A stretch of 64,000 bases of DNA. Origin: an uncultured Methanosarcinales archaeon (GTDB taxonomy: Archaea; Nanobdellota; Nanobdellia; Woesearchaeales; UBA12501). Made by a program: the position numbers and the translations under genes. Positions 26,492 to 43,964 of the stretch are shown one piece after another (within the stretch, counting starts at the first letter, position 1; each line of letters starts with the position of its first letter). The notes below the pieces were generated by a model. That model had not been told where the DNA came from and ran no database searches. It saw nothing but the letters and a program-made list of their open reading frames with translations. The stretch spans positions 110,957 to 174,956 of the forward strand of contig CAYWPA010000001.1 in assembly GCA_964459835.1 (NCBI GenBank), written 5' to 3'.

Positions 26492-29400
26492 ATGGCTGGT
26501 AAAAAAATAGGCTTAATTCTGATTCTTGCTGTAATTACCATCTTTTCAGCATCTTTTGCCTTTGCACAAAGCGGCTGCGAAGCATGCAGGTCATTGGAGC
26601 AGAGTTGCCAAAATGCAGTTGACCAATGCATTTCAAAAGGAGACAGAGTTTGCTCCACTTACCAAACATCAGTGGGCGGAACAGCAGAATGCAGTGAGGA
26701 TGTGCTGGCAGCTTGCAACCCAATCTCTTCTTTTTGCGAAAACTACTGCGGCGTTCCTTCTTTTCCAGTAAGGGCAGACTGCGATTGTGGGGGAGAGTGC
26801 GACTTTGACAATGATAATTTTATTTCTGTAGAACAAAGTGGAAATGACTGCAATGATTTTAACCCAAACATAAATCCCGGCGCAACAGAAGTGAATGATG
26901 GAATAGATAATAACTGCAACAGAATAATCGATGAAGTTTGCAAAGGGATAACAGACCCGGTAGAAGAAGAAGTGGAGTTTGATTCACAGGTTGTTCCAGA
27001 TGCCCATGATACGAACACAAAATATGTTGAATGGACTGATATTAGCGGCATTGATATAAACAGGGTTGTATTTGACGGCTTTGTTCAGGGTGGAGCCCCA
27101 GGCTCAGGCTCTGTTGGAATATCATGCGTTAAGATTAACGGAAATGTTATAGCAGGAGACTGCAGCAAAGACTTGATAAAAAAAACAGATAAAAAGGAAT
27201 GCAGGTCAGGAAATTCAATAGGAGACACCCTGTATGGGATATTGAACTTGCCTGTTTCAGAAAAAGACGGAACAAACGTAGATGTTATATCAATAAAGAC
27301 TTCTGACTGCGGCAAATCAGACAATGAAGTAAAGCTTACAGTAACTAAGCTAGAAGTTCCAGATATTCCTTCAACCTGCGATTTTGACGGTGATGGAGAG
27401 GCTGATGCATCTGATTTAGATGCAGACGGAGACGGGCAGAAGACAGCTATTGTTGCAAAGGCAGGCTCACAGGCAGGAAAAGACTGCAATGATTTTGACA
27501 AAAAAACCTATTTTGGAGCCCAAGAAGTGTGCAGTGATTATGTAGACAATGACTGCGATGATGGAAAAGGAGCTTTTGATACAGAGCCATTGACAGGGGT
27601 TAATGAAGGATGCGAGGATGAAAACCTGTTCAGCTGCAATTTCAATGGATTTAAGTGGGTCGGGCCGCCGACAAAACTAGGGGGAGGATCATGCTGTGGA
27701 AATAATGCACCAGAATATTTCTCTGCCTGGATAAAAGCAGTTGAGTATATCCCTTCTGCATGCTGGAACATAAATACAGTGAACAATGATGCAATAATAG
27801 GCACCAACTTGCTGGAAGGAACTTCGTGGGCAAGGGAAGTAGGGCCTAAGAATGGAGTAGTAAGCCCAACAGAAGCCTATACTTCAGAAGAATTCTCAAT
27901 TGAATGGAGTGGAGTAACTGAAAGGTCTTTGGCAGTTGAAAATGTAATTCCTGGAACAGAATATGTCTTCTCAGCATATGTAAAAACATTGCAGGAAGAG
28001 CCTAATCCAGAAGGAACATTGTTCAATGTTTTTGTAAACAATCAGTTAGTTAAGTCCTTAAATTACAATGATGATTGGGACAAAATAACATATTCCTTCA
28101 CCCCAACAACAGATACTGTTTTCATAACAGTTGCATCAAATGATGTTGACTACCATGTTATTACATTTAAAAATATGTTTTTGTACAACAAAGATGAAAG
28201 AACAGTTCTTCATTTGAATAGTAAGTTCTACGGCTGCGAAGCCCCATCTGCTATAATGAATCTGAAAAATACAATGACAGGAGAAGATTTGATCGAAACA
28301 AACTATGGCGGAGAAAATAAATTTAATCTTGGAAGTAATTATTGCTCAAAAGCAGGATACTGGAAGAAAAAAGCGGATGGAAAAGACCATGTCATCGAAT
28401 CACTAGCTCCTTTTACAAGCGATGACCCTGAATTTTACCAGGAAGAATGGTGCCCTGAAAACTACTGCCACACCGGCTTTTCATGCGTGACAGGGGAGGA
28501 TTTCCAGACGCCAGGAGAGAGCTTTAATTTAGAAGGAGAAAAGTTCAAATGTGTTCTCGGAGAATGGCAGACTGCGGAACAGAAGCTTGACCAGGACGGA
28601 GATATTGGAAAGGTTTGCGGAAAGAGCCAGTGCTATTATAATGATGGCGTAGAGGATTTGTGCGTAAATGACGGAAACTTTACATTTGACAGCTACTGCC
28701 ATAAAGGAACATGGACAACAAGGACAAATATAATATCGCTTGAATTGCTGAATATTGTTGAAGAGGCAAACACAGATGATTATTCATTATTCTGCGGAAA
28801 TTATGAAGAATCTCTAAACGATTTGCAGTTCTATGTAGGAACATTAAAGGCAGATGCAAGCCAGGCAGTATTGGGAAAGAAAACAGACCAGCCGACAGGG
28901 CCTGTATTTGACTGCGGCTACGGCCAGCACCAAGGGGAAGGAATAGGATGCACAAACAACTATTGTGTCTTGAGTTACTATGACCCAACTGATGATGAAG
29001 AAAAGGTTGTATTTGGAACTTCTTTGAACTATCCAATTGAAGCAACAAGAACAGACAACCCAATTTGGTATGATGTAAACTTCCTCACATTACTGGATGA
29101 ATCAAGAAACACAGAAGGATCCCCACCACACTTTAATTATTGTGATGGTGTAATATCAGAAGGAAGCGACAAGTTTTTAGGATGCTTAGGAAAGGTCGGT
29201 TTTATTGAAGGATCCCCTCATACATTATGGTATAATGCAAAGACAAACAGCGTAATTTACAGCGAGCATAAGGTAACAGTTGGAAATGTTGAATTTGGAG
29301 AGAATTTTGCTGCTTTTATTACAAGCCCCTTCAGCTCAATATTTAACTTTATTATTTCTGTATTCCAGAACAGAGCTGCTTTGCAGGAGCAGGATTACTC

Positions 29401-31765
29401 ATTCATAACAGGCGCTTCCAAGTTCAACAGGATTTATGTTGGTAGGAATGATGAAAGAAGCGTAAGGGGAATAATAGAAAAAGTCGGAGAGAACGAATTT
29501 ATGCTTGCAAGCTACAGAAATGTAGGAACAAATGTCTGCAGCATAGTAGATAAGTACAATAACAAAGTTGCTTCAGGATGCACAAAAAACATAAACTGCC
29601 CTTTGATGTGCACACCTGAGATAGGAGATGACTACTGGAGCTTTACTGTCCAGAGCACCGACACAACAAAAGGGGCATTTGACATCTGGCCTGAACTTAC
29701 CTCAAAGATAAGGCTTGGAGGAGATTATGTTGGTTATGGAAAAACAAGCCTTCCTTCAAGCACCATAGAGATTGTTGGAGGAGATTATGTAACGGCATTG
29801 AATCAGTTCACTGCTTCTGCTGTTATTGAAGATGCAATCGCTTATTCATGGGACTTTGGAGACGGCGCTTTTATAGGATCAGAAGACCCGAATGAGGTTG
29901 CGGAAGTAGAGCATGTCTACAAAGAGGAAGGAACATTTACGGTTGCATTTAGGGTATTGGACAAGGACTTTACAATACACGAAGCAACAAAAACAAAATC
30001 AATATCAGCAATACCAGACGGAGCTCCCTGCATTGACAACAACCCAGACTATTGTCAGGGCGATTACTGTGTAAATGGATTATGCTCTTCACTTCCTTAT
30101 GCTGTAGGGGACGGCGTTTGCGATAATGAAGAAGGAGAATCAATATTAAACTCGGCAGACTGTGAAGGAGATGGAATTTGCGGAATGCAGGAGACATGCC
30201 AGAACTCTCCAAGTGACTGCGGCTTCTGCACAGGAAGCAGCTGCATCAGCCATGGAGAATGCCAGTCTGGCTTGTGTGAAAATAACATATGCGCAGCGCC
30301 AAGCTGCACAACAAGAGCAGGATGCCTTACAGAAGAGCAGTGCGTGCTTAAGTTTAGCAACGGAGATGGATACACATGCGATGCAGCAGCAGGAACAAGC
30401 GTATGCTGCAGCTACAATGGAGATAGCGGTATAAAGACTATTTTATCATTATCCTCAACAACAAACAAAGCAGAAATACCAACACTAAAAGGAGTCTTCA
30501 CAGACGAGTTTGACAAGGAGGCAAAGATAAAATCATCAACAGGGATAACATGCGCCTATACAGAGCAGGACTGCAACGCAGCAGGCTACGGATTCTGTGT
30601 TGGATCAATAAGCGATACAACAAACGGAAACGTTGGAGCATGCGGAACTTATAATATTAACGTATGCTGCAGCTATGGAACAAAAGGAATTTCTGTATGT
30701 GGAGATGGAATAATAGAAGGAAATGAGCAGTGCGAGGATGGCAACACAATAGATGGAGATGGATGCTCCAGAAGCTGCAGGGCTGAATACTGTGGAGATG
30801 GGATTGTACAGCAATCTTCAGATGTTGCAAAAGTGACAAGGATTTTCTTATGGAAGCCTGATCAAACAGCACAAACAGGTACTTGCAGAGGAGAGAACTG
30901 CGAAAAGCTTGGAGGAAATATGCAGCTTTCAGCATGCGCCAATAAAGCATGGGATTATTATGGAGAAGATGCTCCGCCACCACAGCCAGTACAGATGGGA
31001 ACAAAAACATGCAGACAAAATTCTTACAACGAATACAAACTTGAGTTGAAAAAAACAGAGGAATGTGATGATGGAAACGATATAAACACTGATGACTGCA
31101 CAAACACGTGCCAGAATCCTTCCTGCGACGATGGAATACAAAACAACGGAGAAGCAGCAGTTGACTGCGGAGGCCAATGTGCAGCCTGTGCGCTAGGACA
31201 GACTTGCACAGCGGATGCTGACTGCGGAGAAGGAAGCAAATGTCTAAACAACGTATGTGTTGACAAACTTTCATTTGAATTTGAGGTTTATGCAAGCGGA
31301 AATTTAGTTGGCACACAGCAGGCAGCAATTGGATTTGAAGAAGGAGATGCGCATATAGGTGCATTCAGCTATGGAGAGCAGCCAACATTGATAAGATCAA
31401 CAAACCAGCAGGTTGAGGTAAAATTCACAGGGCCTACTGATCAGGGAGTGCCATTAACCGCAACATATTTTGGAGGCGATAAATGCGGAATTGGGGGAGG
31501 CGTAACTTGTCCAAACTCATTTAGGATTTCAGACGAAACTCTAGAAGGCTGCCTGAAAGCAGTAAAAGACAGGCAAGGGTATACCAGCTATGGCTTGGGA
31601 GATTCATCACAGAGCGGAAGCTGCCAATATGAGGAATGCTTTTTCGAGTCTTGCAGAACAAAAACAGCACCAATATATTCCTTCAAAGCAGCAAAATATA
31701 CAATCGAAGTGTTTGCATGCATTGATTTGAACAAAGATAATACTTGCGATTATTTGCAACAATGA
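26492..31765 (+). CDS. Giant secreted cysteine-rich surface protein (1757 aa) with MopE-like metal-binding repeats, a PKD domain and Myxococcus-type cysteine-rich repeats
   Basis: Sec signal MAGKKIGLILILAVITIFSASFAFA. Repeats of the form CNDFNPNINPGATEVNDGIDNNCN. PKD motif …WDFGDG…HVYKEEGTFTV…. Repeat CGDGIIEGNEQCEDGNTIDGDGCSRSC. Module VDCGGQCAACALGQTCTADADCGEGSKCLNNVCV. Confidence 0.7.
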   Translation: MAGKKIGLILILAVITIFSASFAFAQSGCEACRSLEQSCQNAVDQCISKGDRVCSTYQTSVGGTAECSEDVLAACNPISSFCENYCGVPSFPVRADCDCGGECDFDNDNFISVEQSGNDCNDFNPNINPGATEVNDGIDNNCNRIIDEVCKGITDPVEEEVEFDSQVVPDAHDTNTKYVEWTDISGIDINRVVFDGFVQGGAPGSGSVGISCVKINGNVIAGDCSKDLIKKTDKKECRSGNSIGDTLYGILNLPVSEKDGTNVDVISIKTSDCGKSDNEVKLTVTKLEVPDIPSTCDFDGDGEADASDLDADGDGQKTAIVAKAGSQAGKDCNDFDKKTYFGAQEVCSDYVDNDCDDGKGAFDTEPLTGVNEGCEDENLFSCNFNGFKWVGPPTKLGGGSCCGNNAPEYFSAWIKAVEYIPSACWNINTVNNDAIIGTNLLEGTSWAREVGPKNGVVSPTEAYTSEEFSIEWSGVTERSLAVENVIPGTEYVFSAYVKTLQEEPNPEGTLFNVFVNNQLVKSLNYNDDWDKITYSFTPTTDTVFITVASNDVDYHVITFKNMFLYNKDERTVLHLNSKFYGCEAPSAIMNLKNTMTGEDLIETNYGGENKFNLGSNYCSKAGYWKKKADGKDHVIESLAPFTSDDPEFYQEEWCPENYCHTGFSCVTGEDFQTPGESFNLEGEKFKCVLGEWQTAEQKLDQDGDIGKVCGKSQCYYNDGVEDLCVNDGNFTFDSYCHKGTWTTRTNIISLELLNIVEEANTDDYSLFCGNYEESLNDLQFYVGTLKADASQAVLGKKTDQPTGPVFDCGYGQHQGEGIGCTNNYCVLSYYDPTDDEEKVVFGTSLNYPIEATRTDNPIWYDVNFLTLLDESRNTEGSPPHFNYCDGVISEGSDKFLGCLGKVGFIEGSPHTLWYNAKTNSVIYSEHKVTVGNVEFGENFAAFITSPFSSIFNFIISVFQNRAALQEQDYSFITGASKFNRIYVGRNDERSVRGIIEKVGENEFMLASYRNVGTNVCSIVDKYNNKVASGCTKNINCPLMCTPEIGDDYWSFTVQSTDTTKGAFDIWPELTSKIRLGGDYVGYGKTSLPSSTIEIVGGDYVTALNQFTASAVIEDAIAYSWDFGDGAFIGSEDPNEVAEVEHVYKEEGTFTVAFRVLDKDFTIHEATKTKSISAIPDGAPCIDNNPDYCQGDYCVNGLCSSLPYAVGDGVCDNEEGESILNSADCEGDGICGMQETCQNSPSDCGFCTGSSCISHGECQSGLCENNICAAPSCTTRAGCLTEEQCVLKFSNGDGYTCDAAAGTSVCCSYNGDSGIKTILSLSSTTNKAEIPTLKGVFTDEFDKEAKIKSSTGITCAYTEQDCNAAGYGFCVGSISDTTNGNVGACGTYNINVCCSYGTKGISVCGDGIIEGNEQCEDGNTIDGDGCSRSCRAEYCGDGIVQQSSDVAKVTRIFLWKPDQTAQTGTCRGENCEKLGGNMQLSACANKAWDYYGEDAPPPQPVQMGTKTCRQNSYNEYKLELKKTEECDDGNDINTDDCTNTCQNPSCDDGIQNNGEAAVDCGGQCAACALGQTCTADADCGEGSKCLNNVCVDKLSFEFEVYASGNLVGTQQAAIGFEEGDAHIGAFSYGEQPTLIRSTNQQVEVKFTGPTDQGVPLTATYFGGDKCGIGGGVTCPNSFRISDETLEGCLKAVKDRQGYTSYGLGDSSQSGSCQYEECFFESCRTKTAPIYSFKAAKYTIEVFACIDLNKDNTCDYLQQ

Positions 31766-33045
31766 AAAAGGCCCAATTAACTTCTTTTGCAATGATTGGC
31801 GTTGCCATGATTATAATCTTTGGCACAATCTATTATTTCAGCGGAGAGTATGCTGAGCAGGGCTTTGAGACAGAAGCGCAGAAGATTTTTTCTGACATTG
31901 AAAAGACAGGCTCAATTGAAAGCTATGCTTCTTCATGCCTGAAGAAGGTTTCATCAGAAGGGATAATGTTTCTTGGAAAACAAGGGCTAAGGCTTTTTGA
32001 AGAGCAGACAAATCCTGAAGCACCAACACCAACTACCCAGCTATCAATTGTTGATTTTAACAATTACAAAATAAGCCTTGCTGTTTCTGACGCAAAAGAA
32101 AAGGAGGTTCCGCAATACCCTTATGGTTTTGAAAAGCTGTTTATCGACGGAGAGGAGAACAGGGCTTCTGTATACGGAAAAAGCGAAATTCCTGCACTGT
32201 GCCAGAAAGGAGGGGTGAATGATGTTGAGGTTACAGAAACAACACCAGGGGTCTGCACATCTCCAATAAGGCCAAGGACAAGGGCATTTATGGAAAATTC
32301 ATTACAGGAACAGCTGCAGGCATACATTGAAAACAACTTAGATACATGCGTAGACAAGTCTTTCCTTAAAGAAGTTCCGGGGTTTGTTGTCGACACAAAA
32401 AAGCCTTCTGTAAATGTAACTATGGGAACAAAAGATGTATTGGTTGAGGCAGCTTATCCTATTTCAGTAAAAAAACAAGACGAGGAAATAATAAAATTTT
32501 ATGATTTCCAAACAACGCTTCCTGTTAGATTAAGCAGAATTTACCATGTTGCTGATTATTTAATTTACTTTGACACAAAATTCCTTGGATTCAATGTTTT
32601 TGAAGACATAAAAAAATCAGTTGATTGGGATGAAAACATTGAAATTAAAATGGAAAACACAGATGCAAGCAAAGTCATTACAATAACAGACCAGGCATCA
32701 AGGATTGATGGCCTTCCTTTTGCTGTTCACCTTGCAATGCCAAACAGAAACCCCGCTTTGGAGATGATTGAGACAGCAGAAGAATATAAAATCGGAGACA
32801 GGCTAGCTATTGAGCCAAAGGCATACGACCCAGATGATAATTCAGTACTAACCATTGAATATGAGCCAGGAACCCCACAAAGTGCAGCTTTTGTAAACAG
32901 GATAAAGCAAAGCATGGATGAAACAGGCAATATCAATTATATTCTGGCAGAAGAAGACAAAGGCTTGTGGAGGGTTAAAGCGGCTGTCGCAGATGAAAAA
33001 GGAAAAGAAGACTGGCAGGATTTGGTGATTAAAGTTACCGACTAA
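31762..33045 (+). CDS. Type IV pilin-like protein (class III signal peptide candidate), 427 aa
   Basis: N-terminus MKKAQLTSFAMIGVAMIIIFG fits the archaeal prepilin motif [KRDE][GA][ALIFQMVED][ILMVTAS] (K-A-Q-L) followed by a hydrophobic helix. The gene overlaps the end of the upstream giant gene. Confidence 0.5.
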   Translation: MKKAQLTSFAMIGVAMIIIFGTIYYFSGEYAEQGFETEAQKIFSDIEKTGSIESYASSCLKKVSSEGIMFLGKQGLRLFEEQTNPEAPTPTTQLSIVDFNNYKISLAVSDAKEKEVPQYPYGFEKLFIDGEENRASVYGKSEIPALCQKGGVNDVEVTETTPGVCTSPIRPRTRAFMENSLQEQLQAYIENNLDTCVDKSFLKEVPGFVVDTKKPSVNVTMGTKDVLVEAAYPISVKKQDEEIIKFYDFQTTLPVRLSRIYHVADYLIYFDTKFLGFNVFEDIKKSVDWDENIEIKMENTDASKVITITDQASRIDGLPFAVHLAMPNRNPALEMIETAEEYKIGDRLAIEPKAYDPDDNSVLTIEYEPGTPQSAAFVNRIKQSMDETGNINYILAEEDKGLWRVKAAVADEKGKEDWQDLVIKVTD

Positions 33046-33121
33046 AACCACCACAATATTTTTAAATAAACTGCCCTCTAAAAGCCTTGTTGGGATTGAT
33101 TGGAGTAAAAGCGGTGAATAG

Positions 33122-36100
33122 ATGAAAAAGAGGCTTTTGTTACTTGGCTTAATAGCTGTATTTTTTGCGATTCTTGCATCAAATGCTTACGCAGGATGTT
33201 GTGTTGCAGAAGCAGGATGCACAGGTCCAGCAACAGGCCCAGCAGATTGTGAAGTTGGGGAAACATATTCTTCAAATGATTGCTCTGAAATCGTAACATG
33301 CGATTTAGGAGTCTGCTGCGGTGTAACTCCTGCAAGAAACTATTTGTCAAGAAGCGAATGTGCAGGCATTGATGGATCATTCTACACATTGTATTCACAT
33401 ACACCAAAAAACCTATTATTAATAGAACAAGAAGATCCTGTTGCTTTTTGTACTGATAAACCAACACCTTGTACATTAAACTCATGCGGAGGACCTGTTC
33501 CAGCAGAATGTTTATGCGGAGATACTGTTGCATCAGCAGGAGATTATTGCTGTTCTGAAAATGTCAGAACAAATGCATTAAGGATTTATGAAAATCAGGT
33601 AGAATGCACAACCTCACCAAGCTTATGCGAAGCTCCTGAAATTCCAACTGTATGCACACAAGATGAAACTCAAATATGCACAGATGGAAGCATAATTGTA
33701 ACATATCAATGCATTAACGGAGCACTGACAGCTACAGGAAATATATGCCCGACACCAGCATGCACTGCGCCTGTATTTGAAGAATGTCCTGACCGCTCAA
33801 CAATAAGAACATATAACTGTGAAAATGGATTATTGGTTGCGACGCAGGAAGAATGCCCTCTGCTTCCTCCAACAATAGCTTTAGAAGGAACATGTGGAGA
33901 CGGAACAGTCAATTCTCCTAACGCTGCAGGGCAGTTTGAACAGTGCGAAGCAGACAGCGGCTGTAGTGATTATAAGGGACTGGAAGGAGTATGCACAGCA
34001 TGCGAATGCGTATACAGCTGCGTTGACCCTACTGTTTCTCCAAGCTTAGCAGTAAAGCATGAAAGGGATTTTAAGCTGACTTTAAACTGGCAGTTGAACA
34101 CCCAATGCGCAGTCGACAAGTTCTCCATATATAAATGCTCAACAAAAATAGGAGCAAGCTGCACAGGATTTGAGATAATAAATGAAGTAACCGAAGAAAC
34201 AGGAAAGCTAAGCCACAGCTATGAGGATTACGATGTAAAGGCGAACATGCAATACTGCTACAAAGTTGATGCTGTTTATGGAGACGGCACAACAACATCT
34301 TCAGAAACAGTATGCGTAAATTCAGGCGATGAAGGATGCATGGAGTTTGACAATGAGTTCTGCGAAGAAAATAAAAGATATTATTGCGATGAAACAACAA
34401 CAAACAAAAAAACATTGGTTGCAGACTGCGAGGAAAGGACATGCATTGGCCCGAATGAAAACGGGGCAACAATATGTGCAGGCACAGGTGAATGCGATAA
34501 GTGCAATGACTTATTTGGCCTGTTTGGGCAGGAAGGGACAGCACAGTCTTTCTTTATCGGAACAAAAGATATGCTTAGCTGCATTTCACAAATTCCATCA
34601 TGCTATTTAGATACTACAAAAACAAATATAGACAAATTCTATTTCTGCAAAGAAACAGAAAGCTGCTATGACTACAAATCAGAAGGCGCGTGCAATAACA
34701 ATGACAATACATGCCAGGTTGGAGAGTGTGAATGGATAAGCGTAAACGAGGAATTTGGAACAGGCGTATGCAGGCCTGTAGATGAAAATGTGCAGCAATG
34801 CGGAAAATGCAATGAGGACGCAGAGTCAGGAAGCAGCTTCTTCGGAGCTTGCACCCCTGAAATGTGCATGGCTTATGGAGACTGCTATACTGGATTTAAT
34901 GGAGCGTGCATGGATAAGAAAAAGACAGGATGCTGGGAATATTATACAGAAGAACAGTGCGCTCCTGACGGAAACGTTCTTGTAGATGCTGTTTATGAAG
35001 GCGAAACAAGAGTAGGAAACACAAACAACATACTGGAAAGGAGCAATGATGCTGCAGGATTTGGATTATGCAAGTGGAACGGCATTTCATGCTTTAAGGA
35101 TGCAGACAGCAACGATATGCCTGACTGCAGAAATGATGGAGAAGATGAAGCCTGCAAAGCAGACAACATGATTCCCACAACAACGCTTATTATAGATAAT
35201 ATTCCTTCTGTAAATGGCAAGCTTCTGCTGCCAAAAACAATAAACATTCCTGTTTCTGTTTCAGAAAGGGCAAAGACCTACTTCTGCATTTCAGGCACAG
35301 AATGCTACCCTGACAAAAGAAGCGCATGCGGAATACAGGAAAATGCAGAGATTCAAAGCGGAGAATACACTCTTTATTATTATTCGGAGGACTACTCACA
35401 CAATCTTGAAGCTGTACAGGCAAAAGAAGTAGTGATTGATTCAGATGATCCTGAAATAAACATTATTCTTTCTTCACAAGAGCTGACAAACAGAAACCAC
35501 AATGTTGAGGTAATATTGCAGGCAAATGAGGTAGTAAGGTGCAACGGTCATATGGAAACACAGCTTGGCCAGCAGGTTGGATCAAACACAGATGTAGAAG
35601 GCCTTTCAGGCCTTGAGCTGGAAAATGAAATAAACGGAATTGGAACAGGATTTGGCATAACATACTACAACATAAAAGATGACAAGTATTATTTTGTATA
35701 TTCCTGCAATGATGAGGCTGGAAACAAGGCTGAAGGTGAAAAAGAAATAACCCTTGACAGCAACAAAATACACAACCCTCTTCCTTTTGGGCCTGTAGGC
35801 ACAAATACAGTTACTTTAAGCGTCCAGACAGACAGCGCAGCAGATTGCAGATATGGAACAACAACAAGCTTCGACAGTATGACTCCTTTCACAGAGACAG
35901 GCAGCACTCAGCATTCAGCTGTTGTTGGAGTGGAAGCAAATAGGCTGTATAATTATAATGTCAAGTGCAAATTTGGAACAAATACTGTTGGAAATGAAGG
36001 AGACAGAATAATATTTTCTTCAGACAAAACATCCCCAAGCGTAAAGATTGTTACAGTAACAGGAGCAGACTTCAACACAGAACTAAGCTATGGTGATGAC

Positions 36101-38689
36101 CAGACATTCTATATTGAATGTATTGACAGGCCTTTTGAGATTGGCAGGTTTAACTTTGGCTGCAAAGAAACAACATATACAATAGGAACACCAAATACAT
36201 TTAATGGCGGTGTAAGCAATGCTATCACAATCACGGACACCCAGGCAATAAGGATTGTCGCAGCAGACAATGGAGGAAATGCAAATGTTCCGCCTGTATT
36301 TATTCCAATAAAGATAGAGAAAACAAAGCCAGAGCTGACAATAGAGCTGCTTAATTTCCCTGCAGGAAAAACGTCTCTTGAAATACTTGGCGCAGGAGAT
36401 TATATAGTAAAGGTAAAGTCAAACAAGCCTCTTGGCTCATTAGAAGCATTTGCACACGTAAACGAAATTCCTGTAGAAGTCAAGCAATTTAAGTCAACTT
36501 CTGTATTGAATACAGAGTTTGAGGGAATAATACATATTCCGTTTGCATTTGAAAGCGAGCTGTTTGAAGATATAATTGCAAACGGAAGCATAAGAGTAGA
36601 TGGATTGATCGGAACTTACGGCTCATTATGCGCAGACACTTCTACAACATTTGACCTTGATATAAGCAAAAGACTTAACTTTATTGTTGATACAAGAGGA
36701 GCAGAGCTTGAGCTGAAGCCAAGCATTGAAAACTACGCATCTATGGAATACCCAGCATATAAATATTCTGACTCTGATGTATACTACACAAGCGACCCAA
36801 TGTTTTTTGTTTCAGGAACAGTTGCAAGTTTTGTTGGAGGAGTACAGTTCTATGCAGCTAATGGGCATGATTTTGTTGAGGAGTTAGGAATACCTAAGGC
36901 AAGCTACAGCTTGGGAGAGAATGCAAAGGAAATGCCTGTAGACTATATCCTGGCAAGTGCAGCAGGAGAAATAGGAAGCAAGTCAATATTTGTTCCTGCG
37001 CAAAGCCTTCCAAACGATTTTGCAGCAGGAAAATATTACCTAAGATTCTCAGGCCATGAAAGAGAAAGCTACGGACATTACCATGAATTTTATGGGGTGG
37101 AAAAAGTCGATATAAAAGCATATAATGCAAACATAACCTTGGCTTCTGAACTAGAGGATAACATTGACTTTGGAGAGCCGATTGACTTGTTCACAAAACC
37201 ATATCCCTACAACTGGTTTGGAGCAAGAGTAAACATAAGCGAAGGATATCCTGAGGTAAGGGAAACTTTATTCTATGCAGGAGCAGGAGGGGAAAGAACC
37301 AAACAATACAAGCTGTTCCTTGAATTATATCCTCCTTATGTCATAAGGCAGGATCCAAAAGATTTCATAATAAATGACAAAAGAAAGCCTTTGTCAATTT
37401 TAGTAAGGGATGACCCAAGCGGAGCGCTTCTGGATGAAAATACAATTAGGCTTATGCTTACGCAGGATGGAAAGAGAAAATCAATCAAACCAGCAGTAAC
37501 AAAGTTCCAGAGCGGCGGCTTTTGGTTCTATAACATTTCATATGCTCCAAAAGAAGACTACACAGGCCTTAACATTGCAAACTTTACAGGAAGGGACAGG
37601 GCAGGCAACCCTTTAACAGCAACAGACGGTGGAAAGCCTGCATTTGCATTCTCTATCAACGATAATATTCCTAACACTCCTTTAATTACATTTGAAGGAG
37701 GAGCAGAGCACGATGGAATATGGTATTCAACTACAACGCCACCTTTCACAATAAAGTTCTATGAAGATGAAGAAGTTGGATTAAGAGGCATCTTCCTTGA
37801 TAATGAAGACCATCAAGTTCCTGCACAATGCAATAAGCTTGAAAGAAACACATGGAAATGCACACTTGACAATCCTTTGCAGCCAAGAGTGTTTGAATCT
37901 GATGGAATAACTGTGATTGAAGATGACATGTTTGACATAATTGTAAGGGCGCATAAAATATTTGCTCCAGGTTTGACAGGAGATGACGGAAGATATCACA
38001 ATCTGCTTGTCATTGACAACATAAAGCCAGAGATTGTAAACATGAATTATAATCCTATAACAAGGCAGGAGAATAAGGATTACACATTAACATCAACTGT
38101 GCACAATGAGCAGCACGACTTAAAAGGAGAATTGTTCTACAAAGGAATAGAGTACCCATTAAGGCAGGCTGCAAACATCGGCTCATTCTACCAATTCGTA
38201 TGGCAGGTTCCATTCTTTGGCATCGGAGCAGATGTTGAAAGGCCGCTTCCGTTTGTTGTAAGGCTTTGCGATTATGCAGGAAACTGCGATGACTTCACAG
38301 AAGGGATGGTTACTATTGACCTTACTCCTCCTGATATCACAAAAGTAGAAGTTAGGGTATTGGAATCGCCAAGGCCAGAGCCTGAGTTTATAACGCCTGT
38401 AACAAGGATTTCAGTAAGCGGAAGCTTTACAGATCCTGACGTAAGCAGCGTATACCTAACCCCTGGAGACTATGACCCTTACACAAATACATATACTCCA
38501 ATAGCCCCAGGAACAGTCACTGGAAAAGACTTCACAATTTTTGTAACCCTAAAAGGCCCACCTCAAAACGTAACCTTAAATCCTATTAACATCACTTTCA
38601 TAGACGAAGCAGGATACCAGGCAAGGAAATCATACAGGGTTTATGCAGACTTGGAAAAGCCGTTTGCAGAAAGAATACAGATAAGATAA
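33122..38689 (+). CDS. Giant secreted protein (1855 aa): Cys-rich N-terminal ~550 aa followed by many beta-rich (Ig/fibronectin-like) domains
   Basis: Sec signal MKKRLLLLGLIAVFFAILASNAYA. Dense Cys spacing in the first third, long Cys-poor beta-strand-rich remainder, no TM anchor. Confidence 0.7.
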   Translation: MKKRLLLLGLIAVFFAILASNAYAGCCVAEAGCTGPATGPADCEVGETYSSNDCSEIVTCDLGVCCGVTPARNYLSRSECAGIDGSFYTLYSHTPKNLLLIEQEDPVAFCTDKPTPCTLNSCGGPVPAECLCGDTVASAGDYCCSENVRTNALRIYENQVECTTSPSLCEAPEIPTVCTQDETQICTDGSIIVTYQCINGALTATGNICPTPACTAPVFEECPDRSTIRTYNCENGLLVATQEECPLLPPTIALEGTCGDGTVNSPNAAGQFEQCEADSGCSDYKGLEGVCTACECVYSCVDPTVSPSLAVKHERDFKLTLNWQLNTQCAVDKFSIYKCSTKIGASCTGFEIINEVTEETGKLSHSYEDYDVKANMQYCYKVDAVYGDGTTTSSETVCVNSGDEGCMEFDNEFCEENKRYYCDETTTNKKTLVADCEERTCIGPNENGATICAGTGECDKCNDLFGLFGQEGTAQSFFIGTKDMLSCISQIPSCYLDTTKTNIDKFYFCKETESCYDYKSEGACNNNDNTCQVGECEWISVNEEFGTGVCRPVDENVQQCGKCNEDAESGSSFFGACTPEMCMAYGDCYTGFNGACMDKKKTGCWEYYTEEQCAPDGNVLVDAVYEGETRVGNTNNILERSNDAAGFGLCKWNGISCFKDADSNDMPDCRNDGEDEACKADNMIPTTTLIIDNIPSVNGKLLLPKTINIPVSVSERAKTYFCISGTECYPDKRSACGIQENAEIQSGEYTLYYYSEDYSHNLEAVQAKEVVIDSDDPEINIILSSQELTNRNHNVEVILQANEVVRCNGHMETQLGQQVGSNTDVEGLSGLELENEINGIGTGFGITYYNIKDDKYYFVYSCNDEAGNKAEGEKEITLDSNKIHNPLPFGPVGTNTVTLSVQTDSAADCRYGTTTSFDSMTPFTETGSTQHSAVVGVEANRLYNYNVKCKFGTNTVGNEGDRIIFSSDKTSPSVKIVTVTGADFNTELSYGDDQTFYIECIDRPFEIGRFNFGCKETTYTIGTPNTFNGGVSNAITITDTQAIRIVAADNGGNANVPPVFIPIKIEKTKPELTIELLNFPAGKTSLEILGAGDYIVKVKSNKPLGSLEAFAHVNEIPVEVKQFKSTSVLNTEFEGIIHIPFAFESELFEDIIANGSIRVDGLIGTYGSLCADTSTTFDLDISKRLNFIVDTRGAELELKPSIENYASMEYPAYKYSDSDVYYTSDPMFFVSGTVASFVGGVQFYAANGHDFVEELGIPKASYSLGENAKEMPVDYILASAAGEIGSKSIFVPAQSLPNDFAAGKYYLRFSGHERESYGHYHEFYGVEKVDIKAYNANITLASELEDNIDFGEPIDLFTKPYPYNWFGARVNISEGYPEVRETLFYAGAGGERTKQYKLFLELYPPYVIRQDPKDFIINDKRKPLSILVRDDPSGALLDENTIRLMLTQDGKRKSIKPAVTKFQSGGFWFYNISYAPKEDYTGLNIANFTGRDRAGNPLTATDGGKPAFAFSINDNIPNTPLITFEGGAEHDGIWYSTTTPPFTIKFYEDEEVGLRGIFLDNEDHQVPAQCNKLERNTWKCTLDNPLQPRVFESDGITVIEDDMFDIIVRAHKIFAPGLTGDDGRYHNLLVIDNIKPEIVNMNYNPITRQENKDYTLTSTVHNEQHDLKGELFYKGIEYPLRQAANIGSFYQFVWQVPFFGIGADVERPLPFVVRLCDYAGNCDDFTEGMVTIDLTPPDITKVEVRVLESPRPEPEFITPVTRISVSGSFTDPDVSSVYLTPGDYDPYTNTYTPIAPGTVTGKDFTIFVTLKGPPQNVTLNPINITFIDEAGYQARKSYRVYADLEKPFAERIQIR

Positions 38690-38718
38690 TTTGATAAGAC
38701 AATTGGATAATATGGCAG

Positions 38719-41700
38719 ATGAAAAAAATAAAAACATCGCTTATAATTTTTGCATCCATCATGTTTTCGATAGCGGCAGCCTCAGCAGCTGCGATAGAGT
38801 TTCAGACAATCGGAAAATCAGTTCCTGAAATAGAAATAAAGTTCCAGGAAGAAGTTTATATTATCGATGCGCAGTTCTACGGGATATTTGATCCAGAGGG
38901 CATTGGCTTGAATGTTTCTGCAGTTGAAGACCCATTCATCACCTATGCTCCTTATGTAAACATAATTGATGCTAAATTCACTTCCGACCTTTTCAACAAA
39001 ACATTTATTTTTAAGCCAGTTCAGAGCCTTCCAAAAGGAGTTTATGTTCTTCAGGTTGATGTAGAAGATATTGTTGGGAATGAAAACACAATACTGAAGT
39101 ATTTTGAGAACAAAGAGCCTATATTTTCTATTGACATTGCAAATCCAAGGCATGGAACAGCAACTTCAACAACATTTGATATTATCATTGAAACAAGATT
39201 CCCAGGGCCTTATGTTGCCCAGTGCAAATATGCCCTTTCAACAGACCCTAAATTTGACTTTAGCTTCCCTGGACTTTCACCGCTAAATTCGCCAAATGGC
39301 ACAACACATATTAAAGAGGGCTATACAAAGTCCGGCTTAGCAGGGCCGGACCCTCTTTATGTTGTCTGCAGGGACAGCCTTGGAAGGGTCAACCAGAGAA
39401 GGTTTGACCTGACAATAGATACAACGCCTCCAAATGTAGGCATTGTTTTTGAGCCGCCAAAAATAATTGAATATGTTGGAGGAAAAATACAAGTCAATCT
39501 CAAAGCACTGCCTGACGACCCAAGCATATGCAAGTACAACTACATTGAGAATCCTGTCGGAACTCCAATATATGAGCAGCTAATCCCTTTTACAGGATTT
39601 GATGTAAAGAATCCAAAAGCTTTCAAAAAAGAACATGTGCAAAATATTGTTCTTCCAGCAAATGAACAGGCAAGCTACATGTTTTTTGTTGCCTGTGAAA
39701 ACAAAGCAGGGATGAGATCTCCTATTGAATCAAAGGATCTGATTGTTGACTTAAAAGCACCAATGGAACTGACTGTAATAAACCCTCCACAATACACAAA
39801 CAAAACAAACACTTCAATTTACCTGAAAACAAACAAGGACTCTTACTGCACTTACAACAACCTTCAGATGTCTACCAACATAAACCTGCGCGCAAAAGAC
39901 CACAAAGCAGAAATGGGAGTATTAGGAGAGGGAAGGCATACTATAAGCTTTTACTGCATTGGCCCTGCAGGAAGCTTTGGCCAGCTTGAATACAGCTTTT
40001 CAATAGATACAACACCTCCTTCTGTTCCTGAAGTAAATGGAAGCTTTTTCACATGCTATGCAGACAGATTTTCCTTTACACCTCCAGTAATTTTCTCTTC
40101 AGCAGACGAGCAGTCAGGAATAAAGCATTATCTTTACTCAATAAAATCTTCCAGCGGCCTTATGATATCAAATAACTCTATTTCAGCAGGGGAACTAAAG
40201 GAAGTGGATGCAAAAGGTGAAAACATAACAGAGACAGGAACTTATACCCTAACAGCAAAAGCAGTAAACAATGTAGGGATTGAAAGCAAGGAATCAACTG
40301 GAATAAAAATAACTTATGATCCTGATAGGATAGAGTGCAAGGAAACAGACCCCCCAACAGTTACAGCTTCTGTTGAATACATTGAATCAAGGGCAGAAGT
40401 CACTTTGCTTTGCCAGGATGAAAGTGGATGTGATAACAACTCATTTTATTACGGCTTAAGCGAAGCAGGAAAATGCTCTCCTACTGTCAAGCTACCATCT
40501 CCTTTTAAAGTAACAGTGCTTAAAACACAATCTATTTGCTATAATGTAAGTGACATTTATGGAAATAGAGCAACAGGCTCAAAGCAAATAACAATAACAG
40601 TTTCCGGAAGCTGCAACAACGGAATCCTTGATTCAGGCGAAAGCGATGTTGACTGCGGCGGAAGCTGCCCTGCATGCGAACTTGGAAAGAGCTGTGTGGT
40701 TGATTTTGACTGCGCATCAGGATACTGTGAAAATGGCATCTGCAGCGAAGCAACATGCAGCGACGGCAAATTAAATGGGCCTGTGAACAACAAAGAAAGC
40801 GATGTTGACTGCGGAGGTTATTGTGTTTTTGAGGGAAAAGCATGTGATGTAGGAAAGAGCTGCATTAGCAATGACGACTGCGCTTCTTTGTTCTGCAATC
40901 CAAATGAAAAAACATGCATGGAATCAACCTGCGATGATGGATTCCAGGGAGGAGATGAAGAAGGCGTTGACTGCGGAAGAAGCTGTGATGCAATATGCGG
41001 AGATATGGATGGAGACGGAATGCCTGATGATTGGGAAGATGAATACGGATTAGATAAAAACAACCCAGATGATGCTTTGCTTGATAACGATAATGATGAC
41101 TTGATAAATGTTGAAGAATACAACAGAGGAACAAATCCATTGAACGAAGATACTGATGGTGATGGATATAATGATGGAGTAGAAGTAAGAAAAAAGACAA
41201 ATCCCCTTGACCCGACTGATTATCCTATTTCTCCTATCGGCACAATTTTGATGATTGCTGGCTTATTGCTGCTGTTAGGTGGCGGAGGCTACTTGATTTA
41301 TGCAAACCAGGACAAGCTTAAGGATTTATTTAAGCCAAAAGAGGCAAGACAGGCTCCAGGAATAAGGCCAGTTGCTCCTTCAGACATAGCAGCCCAGAAA
41401 AGGGCAGAAGATGAAAGGAAACGGCAGGCAGAAATGAGAAGAGTGCAGCTTGAAGAGAGAAGAAAAAAGCTGCAGGAGCTGTCAGGAAAGATAAAAGACA
41501 GGAGGGAAAGAAGGGAGAAGGCAGACAGGGAAAAGAGGGAAAAGCTGTTTGGAAAGTTCGCGCCAAAAAGAGAAATTGAAGCGGTTCAGAAAGAAGAGGC
41601 AGAAACAGGGGCAGAAAGGCCAGGCGGCTGGATATCTATTTCTGCCTTAAAAGAGAGGCTGGCTCCAAAAAAAGAAAAGGCAAAGGAAGCAGAAGAGTTC

Positions 41701-41907
41701 AAAAAGCTTACAGATATTGAAAAAGGAGAAGTTGATGAAAAGCTTGACAAGATAGCTGCAAAATATGAAAAAGCAGGAGCAGGGGATGAAATGTTTGAAA
41801 AGCTTGAAGGATATATAGAAAAAGAGACAGGCAAGACAGAGGAAAGGCTTGAAGAGCTGGCAAAGAAGAAGCGCGCAATTAAAAATGCAAGGAAGAAGTC
41901 TAAGTAA
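38719..41907 (+). CDS. Giant membrane-anchored surface protein (1062 aa): Ig-like repeats, Cys-rich CGGxC modules, Asp-rich Ca-binding (TSP3-like) repeats, C-terminal TM anchor and charged cytoplasmic tail
   Basis: Signal MKKIKTSLIIFASIMFSIAAASAAA. Module CGGSCPACELGKSCVVDFDCASGYCENGIC (x3, similar to the module in the 26492 protein). Repeat DTDGDGYNDGVEVRKKTNPLDPTD. TM ILMIAGLLLLLGGGGYLIY, then a KE-rich tail. Confidence 0.7.
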   Translation: MKKIKTSLIIFASIMFSIAAASAAAIEFQTIGKSVPEIEIKFQEEVYIIDAQFYGIFDPEGIGLNVSAVEDPFITYAPYVNIIDAKFTSDLFNKTFIFKPVQSLPKGVYVLQVDVEDIVGNENTILKYFENKEPIFSIDIANPRHGTATSTTFDIIIETRFPGPYVAQCKYALSTDPKFDFSFPGLSPLNSPNGTTHIKEGYTKSGLAGPDPLYVVCRDSLGRVNQRRFDLTIDTTPPNVGIVFEPPKIIEYVGGKIQVNLKALPDDPSICKYNYIENPVGTPIYEQLIPFTGFDVKNPKAFKKEHVQNIVLPANEQASYMFFVACENKAGMRSPIESKDLIVDLKAPMELTVINPPQYTNKTNTSIYLKTNKDSYCTYNNLQMSTNINLRAKDHKAEMGVLGEGRHTISFYCIGPAGSFGQLEYSFSIDTTPPSVPEVNGSFFTCYADRFSFTPPVIFSSADEQSGIKHYLYSIKSSSGLMISNNSISAGELKEVDAKGENITETGTYTLTAKAVNNVGIESKESTGIKITYDPDRIECKETDPPTVTASVEYIESRAEVTLLCQDESGCDNNSFYYGLSEAGKCSPTVKLPSPFKVTVLKTQSICYNVSDIYGNRATGSKQITITVSGSCNNGILDSGESDVDCGGSCPACELGKSCVVDFDCASGYCENGICSEATCSDGKLNGPVNNKESDVDCGGYCVFEGKACDVGKSCISNDDCASLFCNPNEKTCMESTCDDGFQGGDEEGVDCGRSCDAICGDMDGDGMPDDWEDEYGLDKNNPDDALLDNDNDDLINVEEYNRGTNPLNEDTDGDGYNDGVEVRKKTNPLDPTDYPISPIGTILMIAGLLLLLGGGGYLIYANQDKLKDLFKPKEARQAPGIRPVAPSDIAAQKRAEDERKRQAEMRRVQLEERRKKLQELSGKIKDRRERREKADREKREKLFGKFAPKREIEAVQKEEAETGAERPGGWISISALKERLAPKKEKAKEAEEFKKLTDIEKGEVDEKLDKIAAKYEKAGAGDEMFEKLEGYIEKETGKTEERLEELAKKKRAIKNARKKSK

Positions 41908-42889
41908 AAAAGGGATAGAAGTTCAATTTAATTGGATATTTATATTAATTATTGGTGTTTTGATTCTTGCTTTTTTTGTTGTGATGGTGCAAAAACAGAG
42001 GGAAGTCGCAAACAAGAAGCTTGCTGTTAATGTTCTTTCTGAGATCGATGTTATATTAACAGGAGAAGGTGTTGCAACAGGAAGAAGCGACATTCTTGAA
42101 ATACCGGAAATGCCTTTTGAATTTACATGCACTTCATATTCTGTTGCAGGCATTGGAAGAGATACAGGAAACTCAATAATATTTTCGCCTTACAATATTG
42201 AAAGCGACACGCTTTTAACATGGACTTTATCATGGAATATGCCGTATAAGATAGCAAACTTTCTTTACCTCACAACACCCGACATCACTTATTATTTTGT
42301 TAATGTTGAGGATTTTATTGTGGATGAGCTCCCAAACAACATAACAGTGAGAAAAGTCAAGGGTATTAATGACATTGAGCCGCAGGGTGAAGACCATATC
42401 AGGATTATTGCAACTGAGAATATTGCAGGACCTTTGCCTTCTAAGCTTAAAGGCCTCCCTGAAGAAGAGCTCACTGCCCTGGTTATTGGAGATGATAAGC
42501 TGGAGTTTTACAAGTCAGACCGAGAAAGCTTTGTTCCAGATGAGTTTGAAGGGAGCAATTCCTACCCTGCCTTAAGCAAAGAGACTTTATATGGGGCTGT
42601 TTTTGCCAACAGGTTTGAAGAGTACAAATGTACTATGGACAAGGCTGTGAAGAGATGGGGAAAAGTAAATGAGATATATATTATAAGGACAGAATTTTTG
42701 GAGGGAGTACACGGCGACATCACAGACCCATGCTGGGTTTATTATGCAGGAACAGAGTTTATAACAATAGGCCAGATTATAGGCGACGGGCTGCAGGAAG
42801 GTGATGCTGATTTCATTACGCCAACAATAAGGCAGCTGTCAGCAACAAATGACAATACTATATTTGCATCATGTCCTGAGCTGTACTAA
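41885..42889 (+). CDS. Membrane-anchored protein with pilin-like N-terminus (334 aa)
   Basis: MQGRSLSKKGIEVQFNWIFILIIGVLILAFFVV: a basic leader then a single N-terminal hydrophobic helix. The 5' end overlaps the preceding giant gene; start choice uncertain. Confidence 0.4.
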   Translation: MQGRSLSKKGIEVQFNWIFILIIGVLILAFFVVMVQKQREVANKKLAVNVLSEIDVILTGEGVATGRSDILEIPEMPFEFTCTSYSVAGIGRDTGNSIIFSPYNIESDTLLTWTLSWNMPYKIANFLYLTTPDITYYFVNVEDFIVDELPNNITVRKVKGINDIEPQGEDHIRIIATENIAGPLPSKLKGLPEEELTALVIGDDKLEFYKSDRESFVPDEFEGSNSYPALSKETLYGAVFANRFEEYKCTMDKAVKRWGKVNEIYIIRTEFLEGVHGDITDPCWVYYAGTEFITIGQIIGDGLQEGDADFITPTIRQLSATNDNTIFASCPELY

Positions 42890-42906
42890 ACAATAAAAAA
42901 TACAAA

Positions 42907-43434
42907 ATGAATAAATCAAAAAAAGCGCAGATAAAGATGGGAGAAACAATGGCGATTCTTCTAGTCTTCTTCATACTTCTTGGGCTTGGCTTGATTTTTT
43001 ACGGCTCTGTGCAGAAGGCATCAATACAGGAAAGCGGAAGAGAGGCTTTCCAGAGGGAAGCAGTAAAGATTGCGCTGAAAACAACATTTCTTTCTGAACT
43101 GCAGTGCAGCAAAAAGAATTTTGTAACAGAAAACTGCATGGATTTGTACAAGCTGGCTGCTTTGTCAGAAGTTATTAATCCACAGGCAGGAGGGTATGAC
43201 TCTGATTTATTTTTGTTCTATCAAAGAGATTTTGGCGATAGCGTCATAACAGTTCATGAGATTTTTCCAAGCCTTGGGCAGACATATATTCTGTATAAAA
43301 ACCAGCCACCGAATGTCGAGGATTATGACTCAATACCGACCTTCATTCCATTGTCGCTGAGGAACCCAACCAAAAGCTTAGGCTCGCAGTATGTTTTTGG
43401 GGTATTGAACGTAACTGTGTTTAAGAAAAGATGA
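42907..43434 (+). CDS. Type IV pilin-like protein (175 aa)
   Basis: MNKSKKAQIKMGETMAILLVFFILLGLGLIF shares the KKAQ[IL] leader with the 31762 protein (K-A-Q-I fits the FlaFind-type motif). Confidence 0.45.
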   Translation: MNKSKKAQIKMGETMAILLVFFILLGLGLIFYGSVQKASIQESGREAFQREAVKIALKTTFLSELQCSKKNFVTENCMDLYKLAALSEVINPQAGGYDSDLFLFYQRDFGDSVITVHEIFPSLGQTYILYKNQPPNVEDYDSIPTFIPLSLRNPTKSLGSQYVFGVLNVTVFKKR

Positions 43435-43964
43435 ACAAAATAATGAAAAAAAGAGGGCAAATGGAAATCATTGGATTGGCTGTTATAGTCATAATGCTGA
43501 GCTTTGGGCTTATTTTTGCCCTTAAAACAATGATAAAGCCTCCTTCTAAGATACAGGAAAGCTTTGCCCAGAAGCAGCTGAGCCAGAACATGATAGATGC
43601 GATGATAAAGTCATCTACGAACTGCCGCAGCCTGGATCTGCAGGAGCTGCTTATAGACTGTGCTAACAGCGGCCTCGGAGGAAGGATAGAGTGCTCAGGC
43701 GTAAAATCATGCACTTTTGTAAGAGGAGCAATGGAAACAATTCTGGAAAGAACACTTGATGAATGGGCTGTTCCGTATAGATTAAGGGTATATACTGGAA
43801 ATGAAGTTATCATAGGCGAGCCTGATGCCGGGCTTTATTTTGAAAACATGGAATGCGGAGCAAATATAGAAGCAGGAACAGCAGACGTAGAAACTCCAGG
43901 AATACAGCCTTTGCCTATAGAAAGCGGAACGCTTACTTTAATGCTCGAGATATGCAAATACTAG
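43431..43964 (+). CDS. Type IV pilin-like protein (177 aa)
   Basis: MNKIMKKRGQMEIIGLAVIVIMLSFGLIFAL: an R-G-Q-M class III signal-peptide motif then a hydrophobic helix. ATGA overlap with the upstream pilin-like gene. Confidence 0.5.
   Translation: MNKIMKKRGQMEIIGLAVIVIMLSFGLIFALKTMIKPPSKIQESFAQKQLSQNMIDAMIKSSTNCRSLDLQELLIDCANSGLGGRIECSGVKSCTFVRGAMETILERTLDEWAVPYRLRVYTGNEVIIGEPDAGLYFENMECGANIEAGTADVETPGIQPLPIESGTLTLMLEICKY

Follow-up and report, generated by a model that had tools for sequence, protein, structure and literature searches.

What kind of surface structure is built by seven consecutive archaeal genes, four of which encode proteins that begin like type IV pilins and three of which encode secreted giants? 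The genes in question, here called g1 to g7, occupy positions 26492-43964 (+) of the window, the 64,000-nucleotide stretch of contig CAYWPA010000001.1 analysed in this study. They are best read as a type IV filament accessory locus made of lineage-specific, unannotated families. The fuller reading, to which we give about even chances, is that they represent the accessory half, conserved across relatives, of a type IV filament of Woesearchaeota type, combining a minor-pilin set for initiation or the tip with giant adhesin or envelope proteins.

All seven open reading frames (ORFs) run head to tail on the + strand. The operon opens with g1 (26492-31765, 1757 aa), a secreted giant, followed by the pilin-like g2 (31762-33045, 427 aa from MKKAQL), a second secreted giant, g3 (33122-38689, 1855 aa), and a type I membrane giant, g4 (38719-41907, 1062 aa). 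Three further pilin-like genes complete it: g5 (41885-42889, 334 aa, MQGRSLSKKGIEV), g6 (42907-43434, 175 aa, MNKSKKAQI) and g7 (43431-43964, 177 aa, MNKIMKKRGQM), the final gene of the unit. Adjacent genes are spaced by -4 bp (g1/g2), +76 bp (g2/g3), +29 bp (g3/g4), -23 bp (g4/g5), +17 bp (g5/g6) and -4 bp (g6/g7). The first-pass annotation of this DNA had described seven consecutive same-strand genes overlapping by a few bp, and all of these ORFs were recovered at the positions it gave. It had also described the giants and the pilin-like genes as interleaved; the two kinds are indeed mixed, but they do not strictly alternate, the order being giant, pilin-like, giant, giant and then three pilin-like genes in a row.

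The arrangement recurs in related genomes. A word-index homologue search returned 2-3 matches each for g7 and for g2, leaving g5 as the sole usable anchor; 87 loci encoding g5 relatives were gathered, and their ORFs were called and classified by BLAST and clustering. Many loci are cut by contig ends, and all locus counts are lower bounds. The order in relatives (numbered with the prefix L) is g1-g2-g3-g4-(A)-g5-g6-g7, where A is a further pilin-like family of ~170 aa. Counted from g5, g6 is found at +1 in 76/87 loci, g7 at +2 in 72/87 and family A at -1 in 67/87, with g4 at -2 in 55/87 by strict clustering and in 76/87 by BLAST. On the upstream side, g3 is present in 56/87, g2 at -3 in 21-29/87 and the core of g1 at -4 in 15-19/87. 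The complete seven-gene arrangement is seen again elsewhere, L050, L046 and L084 being examples. In the closest relatives the orthologues of g3 and g4 are full-length, with 27-35% identity over >800 to ~1,750 aligned positions; for g3 the full-length identity is 31-32% in L011, L012 and L014 and 27% in L015. In eight loci (L003, L021, L036, L043-L045, L047 and L073) g3 and g4 are fused into one protein of 2,100-2,800 aa, which suggests that the two act together. In L004, L006 and L008 the stop of g4 and the start of the pilin-like gene that follows, A, overlap by 4 bp. The window itself holds no homologue of family A or of the small pilins described below. The possibility that the giants are scattered paralogues with no pilin association was tested and fails, since their orthologues are syntenic with pilin-like genes in dozens of genomes.

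The distribution of the locus is broad within a single lineage. A genome scan placed relatives in at least 103 species-representative genomes, a set that does not include the source genome, and a g5 profile search of 1.84 billion cluster representatives (50% identity) returned 2,171 relatives at E<=1e-3 and 1,171 at E<=1e-30. Among the best 150 of the 2,171, lengths span 322-455 aa and are mostly 325-390 aa. The records of relatives are titled Candidatus Woesearchaeota, Nanoarchaeia or Nanoarchaeota, together with a third-party batch of metagenome-assembled genomes (MAGs) titled 'uncultured Methanosarcinales', which includes L011, L020, L022 and L023. Two contigs with the cluster sit in bins titled Binatia and Alphaproteobacteria (L032 and L078). 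Both the Methanosarcinales-titled MAGs and these two bacterial-bin contigs are probably mislabelled or mis-binned, because their gene order is identical to that of the Woesearchaeota cluster. The window is itself archaeal, encoding Cdc6/Orc1, both DNA polymerase D subunits, MCM, RNase P p30, TFIIE-alpha and TrmB, and its nearest relatives are Woesearchaeota / Nanoarchaeia MAGs. An architecture typical of small-genome archaea, as proposed initially, is documented here only for the Woesearchaeota / Nanoarchaeia lineage.

The pilin-like proteins are united by their N-termini. The sequences begin MKKA followed by QLTSFAMIGVAMIIIFGTIYYF in g2, MQGRSLSKKG followed by IEVQFNWIFILIIGVLILAFF in g5, MNKSKKA followed by QIKMGETMAILLVFFILLGLGLIFYG in g6, and MNKIMKKRG followed by QMEIIGLAVIVIMLSFGLIF in g7, so that the junctions read KKA-Q, KKG-I, KKA-Q and KRG-Q. 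An uncharged hydrophobic stretch of ~20 residues is present in all four, and the prepilin-like N-termini recognised in the first-pass annotation are thereby upheld, with [KR][GAS] preceding the hydrophobic stretch in each. Among six-frame matches to this pattern, the called genes of the window that start with [KR][GAS] and an uncharged hydrophobic segment are g2, g5, g6 and g7 only. In relatives, six recurring pilin-like families stand side by side (g2, A, g5, g6, g7 and tandem proteins of 85-100 aa), four of which are present in the window. Common to all six is [KR][KR]-[G/A/S]-Q followed by ~20 uncharged hydrophobic residues. Family-wide, K/R occupies position 0 in 100% and G/A/S the next position in 88-97%; Q at +1 is conserved at 95-98% in g2 and g7, and g7 adds an invariant E at +3 and G at +6.

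This similarity does not extend into the rest of the proteins. When profiles of different families are compared, they match in the first 35-75 residues only, and the globular parts are unrelated. Conservation is 0.56-0.66 in the N-terminal 35 columns vs 0.38-0.43 in the remainder, an excess that is clear in g5, g6, g7 and A and marginal in g2. The motif also follows the cluster strand: its strict form with Q occurs in 337/1010 cluster-strand genes vs 1/178 opposite-strand neighbours, and the loose form in 629/1010 vs 9/178. A junction kept across unrelated families is what would be expected of a shared processing or assembly signal, not of an ordinary signal anchor.

Full-length g2 homologues in relatives keep the g2-type N-terminus. 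Across 33 aligned homologues of g5 the N-terminal consensus [KR][KR][GA]x[IV]E[VI]QFNWIFILIAGAxILxFF is nearly invariant. Three cysteines, C249, C283 and C330, are fully invariant, and C82 is conserved at >=90%. An AlphaFold2 model from the same 33 homologues reaches a predicted local distance difference test score (pLDDT) of 90.3 and a predicted template modelling score of 0.85. It consists of a 53-residue helix (residues 9-61), a beta domain (68-228) and a helical bundle (232-327), and the topology of this predicted structure is the 'lollipop' of type IV pilins. In g7, Q10, E12, G15 and three cysteines are invariant among 63 homologues, with a fourth cysteine at >=90%; comparison of its profile with Protein Data Bank (PDB) sequences was uninformative. 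The conserved cysteines of g5 and g7 fit an extracytoplasmic location. For g6, one public assembly calls a protein of 161 aa from an internal Met (window 42907-42951; L001:6619-7104). This call is probably too short, because the upstream KKAQ start is kept in 70+ relatives, which makes the 175-aa start likely. Automated gene callers have probably clipped pilin-like leaders in the Woesearchaeota-type lineage. Searches of Pfam to E<=10 (whole proteins and 60-aa N-termini), NCBIfam and PHROGs returned nothing for g2, g5, g6 or g7.

All three giants carry Sec-type leaders (aa 1-26 in g1) and are rich in cysteine, at 5.8% in g1, 4.3% in g3 and 3.0% in g4. In g1, MopE repeats (Cu-binding_MopE, PF11617, 50.5 bits, cutoff 27) lie at ~aa 119-148, a PKD domain (PKD_4, PF18911, 35.4 bits, cutoff 27) at aa 1106-1164, and a Cys repeat at aa 1400-1432 that matches both TIGR02232 myxo_disulf_rpt (42.8 bits, cutoff 20.8) and DUF4215 (PF13948, 27.8 bits, cutoff 27); a single copy of a VDCGGxC...C...DxDC...C module follows at aa 1557-1589. 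The sole part of g1 common to orthologues elsewhere is a core at aa 566-1077 (28187-29722, +), which matches g1-like proteins of L050, L066, L081, L031 and others in BLASTP at E 1e-41 to 1e-16 over this whole interval and has no Pfam match. The g3 protein is divided into a Cys-rich N-terminal part of 700 aa, beginning GCC, and a Cys-poor C-terminal part of 1100 aa, with weak, below-threshold Big_13 (immunoglobulin (Ig)-like) signals and no membrane anchor.

The build of g4 is a Sec leader, an Ig-like region, Cys modules, TSP3 Ca-binding repeats, one transmembrane (TM) helix and a charged tail. TSP3_bac (PF18884, 34.5 bits, cutoff 25) and Big_13 (PF19077, 28.7 bits, cutoff 27) are both recognised, and VDCGG modules occupy aa 644-680 and aa 696-738, accompanied by a VDCGR remnant. 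Anchor and tail are encoded at 41224-41904 (+): the TM helix spans ~aa 836-862 (ISPIGTILMIAGLLLLLGGGGYLIYA) and the K/E/R-rich tail aa 863-1062, 200 residues of which 50% are K+E+R+D and which are presumably cytoplasmic. A leader, a single TM helix 110-400 aa before the C-terminus and a charged tail are found in 58/63 long members of the g4 family. Set against archaeal S-layer proteins, g4 shows a C-terminal TM helix; Pfam recognises no S-layer domain in it, and a long charged cytoplasmic tail is atypical of S-layer proteins. The Cys-rich and Ca-binding modules that had been picked out by eye in the giants (MopE, PKD, DUF4215/myxo repeat and TSP3_bac) all pass curated cutoffs, as does the Big_13 match of g4, and the VDCGGxC module described as shared among them is present once in g1 and twice in g4. 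Neither the PilY1 beta-propeller nor DUF2341 nor vWA is matched by Pfam or NCBIfam in g1, g3 or g4, and PDB sequence searches with the three giants found no relative beyond PKD and MopE.

In most relatives the cluster continues beyond g7. Tandem genes for proteins of 85-100 aa (KKAQGISINTIIVAAIALLVLV...) lie directly after g7, one 93-aa family of these short pilins being present in 29 loci, and they are candidates for the major pilins. Larger proteins are encoded downstream as well: 119/226 of those of >=200 aa carry a pilin-type N-terminus (for example L009:10180-12549; L004:14079-14762 and 19666-21008; L061:10160-11158). The recurring Pfam domains among 118 large tagged proteins are peptidoglycan hydrolases only, namely SLT (five), M23 (three), M15/VanY (two), muramidase, Amidase_2, Amidase_3 and NlpC/P60; PLD and GDSL lipase also occur. 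Neither short pilins nor tagged hydrolases are encoded in the window, and in the source genome this half of the cluster must lie elsewhere or have been lost.

Several results weigh against the reading as an accessory half of a type IV filament. The window encodes no PilB/FlaI-type ATPase, platform protein or A24 peptidase, an absence already remarked on in the first-pass annotation and borne out here, and no major pilin gene. Curated pilin, class III and archaellin models match none of g2, g5, g6 and g7, nor the small pilins or family A of relatives. Measured against the FlaFind consensus, only g2 is a strict fit; g5, g6 and g7 have a charged residue between +2 and +6. The head of g5 matched no solved fold and is not recognisable as a pilin fold, and the g7 model, made from a 3-sequence alignment, is unusable (pLDDT 55). 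Because g4 is anchored in the membrane by its C-terminal TM helix, it is not a tip adhesin, and at least one of the giants cannot ride on a pilus tip. The earlier suggestion of minor pilins or tip adhesins for a system encoded elsewhere is supported by motif and synteny for its pilin part, and falls for g4 as a tip adhesin.

The search for assembly machinery was extended to the relatives. For the ATPase, the screen of their loci used the Walker A motif alone, and the secretion-ATPase pattern G..G[ST]GK[ST][TS] was found in no ORF within 10 kb on either side in 88 sequences (87 loci and the window). No TadC-like polytopic protein was recognised among ORFs with at least four TM helices, only four of the candidates from relatives being checked against Pfam, and there was no A24 peptidase among those proteins of relatives that were scanned. 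The neighbours retrieved by Walker A, TM-count and Pfam scans were only kinases, PhoU/MazE, SpoIIM and a presenilin-like SPP gene. This last gene encodes an intramembrane protease of the GxGD type (PF06550) and is separated from g7 by a distance of 2-4 genes in just four relatives (L003:13527-14456, L021:13800-14762, L036 and L070:5338-6279). SPP and prepilin peptidases belong to one mechanistic class; with four occurrences, the SPP gene is too rare to be put forward as the leader peptidase. A 10-TM protein of the window (924-1772, -) has no GxGD motif.

Among the other explanations, a bindosome-like or pseudopilus-like display platform is a real possibility, if less than a probable one. Here the pilin-like proteins, processed by a class III peptidase, would make no long pilus but a short pseudopilus or raft close to the membrane, which would hold the giants on the cell surface or push them through the envelope, with the hydrolases treated likewise in relatives. 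The pilin-type N-terminus on 119 of the 226 large downstream proteins favours such a platform, as does the fact that the recurring domains of these tagged proteins are those of enzymes only. Non-filament proteins with class III tags are known, the sugar-binding proteins of Sulfolobus being the example (PMC4858521; bioRxiv 10.64898/2026.04.22.720090). The membrane anchor of g4 and the lack of a major pilin in the window are also in its favour. On the other side stand the tandem short pilin genes after g7 in many relatives, which are typical of major filament subunits, and the fixed set of four to five single-copy pilin-like genes, which looks less like displayed cargo than like a complex for the tip or for initiation. 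The present data do not separate a short filament from a long one.

An explanation with no type IV filament at all, in which g2, g5, g6 and g7 are uncleaved signal anchors (type II membrane proteins) belonging to a cluster for envelope or S-layer biogenesis, with g3/g4 as the surface coat, is judged unlikely. It would account for the silence of all pilin family models, for the absence of ATPase, platform protein and peptidase near any locus examined, for a g5 head without recognisable pilin fold and for the C-terminal anchor of g4, which is typical of many archaeal S-layer proteins; the 2171 g5 cluster representatives are the breadth expected of a core envelope component. It leaves unexplained, however, the near-invariant [KR][GAS]Q junction in six unrelated families, the invariant Q10, E12 and G15 of g7, the QFNWIF block of g5, an N-terminus more conserved than the ectodomain, and the tandem 85-100 aa pilin-like genes of relatives. 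Ordinary signal anchors, tested as the alternative for the small proteins, are disfavoured by the cross-family motif, by N-terminal conservation and by the helix-plus-head model of g5. Highly improbable is a horizontally mobile island carrying mobile-element, viral or defence cargo instead of a chromosomal surface apparatus. A TraB/PrgY/GumN-family gene on the opposite strand converges on g7, the GC content of the operon (0.40-0.44) is slightly above that of its flanks (0.35-0.40), and the operon proteins of the source genome are singletons at 90% identity, all of which could suggest mobility. Yet PHROGs gave no match, none of 2.9 million viral contigs holds a g5 relative, and this reading was rejected on those two grounds; nor are integrase or conjugation genes present in the window, RNase P p30 and a PP-loop enzyme, both housekeeping genes, flank the operon, and conservation is vertical in >100 species representatives of one lineage.

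Under the accessory-half reading, the pilin-like proteins g2, g5, g6 and g7, joined by family A in most relatives, would be processed by a class III (prepilin) signal peptidase, predicted to remove the short basic leader ending [KR]-[G/A/S]. Cleavage would expose a hydrophobic helix that usually begins with Gln. On the model of the minor pilins, four to five in number, of bacterial type IV pili (T4P) and type II secretion systems (T2SS), the processed proteins may form one complex of fixed stoichiometry, which would prime filament assembly, be incorporated and sit at the tip or base. The giants g1, g3 and g4 would be exported by Sec and co-produced with the pilin-like proteins partly through the overlapping stop and start codons, and could then come into contact with them. 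A single C-terminal helix would hold g4 in the membrane with its charged tail in the cytoplasm, g3 most likely acting with it, and g1 may supply a Cys-rich, Ca-binding, Ig/PKD-like surface for adhesion and contact with other cells. The source genome would carry the genes for motor ATPase, platform protein, peptidase and the short major pilins at other sites.

The nearest functional analogue of the operon is the bacterial fimU-pilVWXY1E operon and the T2SS GspH-I-J-K tip complex, to which homology is undetectable. As in the GspHIJK and minor-pilin operons, four to five distinct pilin-like genes are kept in a fixed order, and one member is about twice the size of its partners, the g5 family (~350 aa vs ~170 aa) recalling GspK in this respect. 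As in the PilY1 operon, the pilin-like genes adjoin a large Sec-exported non-pilin adhesin, and as in bacterial minor-pilin operons generally they lie apart from the genes for major pilin and motor. Unlike the bacterial sets, the operon proteins share no sequence or detectable fold similarity with minor pilins or Gsp proteins. The giants, unlike PilY1, lack its domains (DUF2341, vWA and beta-propeller), and one of them is membrane-anchored. The junction is [KR][GAS]-Q in the operon and G-F/M...E5 in bacteria, and the host is an archaeon, which has neither outer membrane nor secretin. Szabo et al. reportedly found in 2007 that the mature substrates of EppA have Q at +1, a feature shared with the operon proteins.

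Archaeal precedents are closer in composition. Pilin genes of archaea often lie outside the ATPase/T4P operon (PMC4858521, Makarova et al. 2016). The T4P loci of Thermoproteales (clade 4G) encode a large 'S-layer-like' protein with a C-terminal TM helix, a large signal-peptide protein and Cys-rich minor pilins, and methanococcal loci encode PilY-like large proteins (PMC4858521); at the type IV filament loci of archaea, adhesin-like proteins have since been noted again (bioRxiv 10.64898/2026.04.22.720090). The Woesearchaeota cluster is described in neither of these papers. The operon resembles the Thermoproteales 4G and Methanococcales Epd loci in combining a large C-terminal-TM protein, a large signal-peptide protein and small Cys-containing minor pilins. 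Those loci, however, include ATPase and TadC genes, none of which was recognised within 10 kb of the operon in the 88 sequences. It further departs from them in that all seven of its families are lineage-specific and unannotated, and in that its giants carry Cys-rich modules of bacterial type (MopE, myxo repeat and TSP3). With the Sulfolobus bindosome, a set of sugar-binding proteins assembled by BasEF, the cluster shares functional non-filament proteins with pilin-type N-termini, here the large enzymes of relatives. Unlike the bindosome, the operon has no substrate-binding-protein domains or ABC transporter, and its locus does not hold an ATPase and platform protein of its own, whereas the bindosome locus does.

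The remainder of the window (whole-window GC ~0.39) contains further features. Ahead of the operon, we infer from reading by eye only a putative promoter and ribosome-binding site of g1 at 26420-26491 (+), where an A/T-rich TTTTTAAAG box stands ~60 nt 5' of g1 and GAGGA 6 nt before the ATG; a further TTTTTAAATAAA box is found in the g2-g3 gap at 33060-33071. The GC-rich non-coding segment between RNase P p30 and g1 (26290-26410) shows no unusual RNA fold (z -0.07 vs shuffles) and no Rfam match. A tRNA is recognised by Rfam at 18170-18320 (+), 151 nt long and scoring 42.1 bits against the full 71-position model; it presumably contains an intron, and ARAGORN calls no tRNA in the window as a whole. 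On the strand opposite to the operon, 18335-23185 (-) encodes a 1616-aa giant with ~15 hydrophobic segments in a hydropathy scan, which is a large polytopic membrane protein; Pfam recognises DUF2207_C (47.9 bits, cutoff 33) and an Ig-like FixG_C domain above cutoff, with a sub-threshold anoctamin match. Downstream of the operon, 45070-51585 holds genes of 343, 456 and 312 aa without family match and then an 843-aa protein, whose sole Pfam match is a DNA polymerase B exonuclease domain at aa 356-397 (E 1e-5, 25.4 bits, cutoff 23). This protein may be a PolB that is divergent or protein-primed, or else what is left of an element. Cdc6/Orc1 and the small and large PolD subunits form one overlapping operon at 6103-12448, near which the MCM gene lies at 14522-16540 (-), and the 550-bp gap 5' of cdc6 (5555-6102) is a candidate replication origin.

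Groundwater and sediments harbour Woesearchaeota and related DPANN archaea in abundance, all still uncultured, and to our knowledge the mode by which they attach to other cells is unknown. The locus defines five unannotated pilin-like families and three families of giant surface proteins; g5 alone has ~2,200 cluster representatives and no Pfam model. The gene set can be used for annotating MAGs, for reading the pili-like appendages seen by cryo-electron microscopy and for designing antibodies or proteomic searches. Ultrasmall cells from groundwater do bear pili-like appendages (PMC7906910). If the tip-complex reading is true, archaea would have in this operon their own equivalent of the minor-pilin/adhesin tip complex of bacteria, apparently of independent origin.

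The second half of the cluster in relatives extends the question to the targets of such a filament. Pilin-tagged murein hydrolases in an archaeon suggest that these targets are bacterial. Murein transglycosylases of Woesearchaeota have been reported and taken as signs of predation, with no link drawn to pilin-like genes (PMC9723730; PMC12352652). The hydrolases in the cluster of relatives are of the kind behind these 'predatory archaea' proposals, so that the cluster may connect a filament at the cell surface with attacks on bacteria. A more speculative extension, which we hold with considerable doubt, is that the operon is half of a lineage-wide cell-contact organelle of Woesearchaeota directed against bacteria, in which the tip complex, borne by a type IV filament, would position the giant Cys-rich adhesins on a bacterial host or prey and the class III N-terminus would tag hydrolases for delivery. 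If this is true, it would provide a mechanism for the proposed predatory lifestyle, with pilin-type targeting of lytic enzymes as its defining feature.

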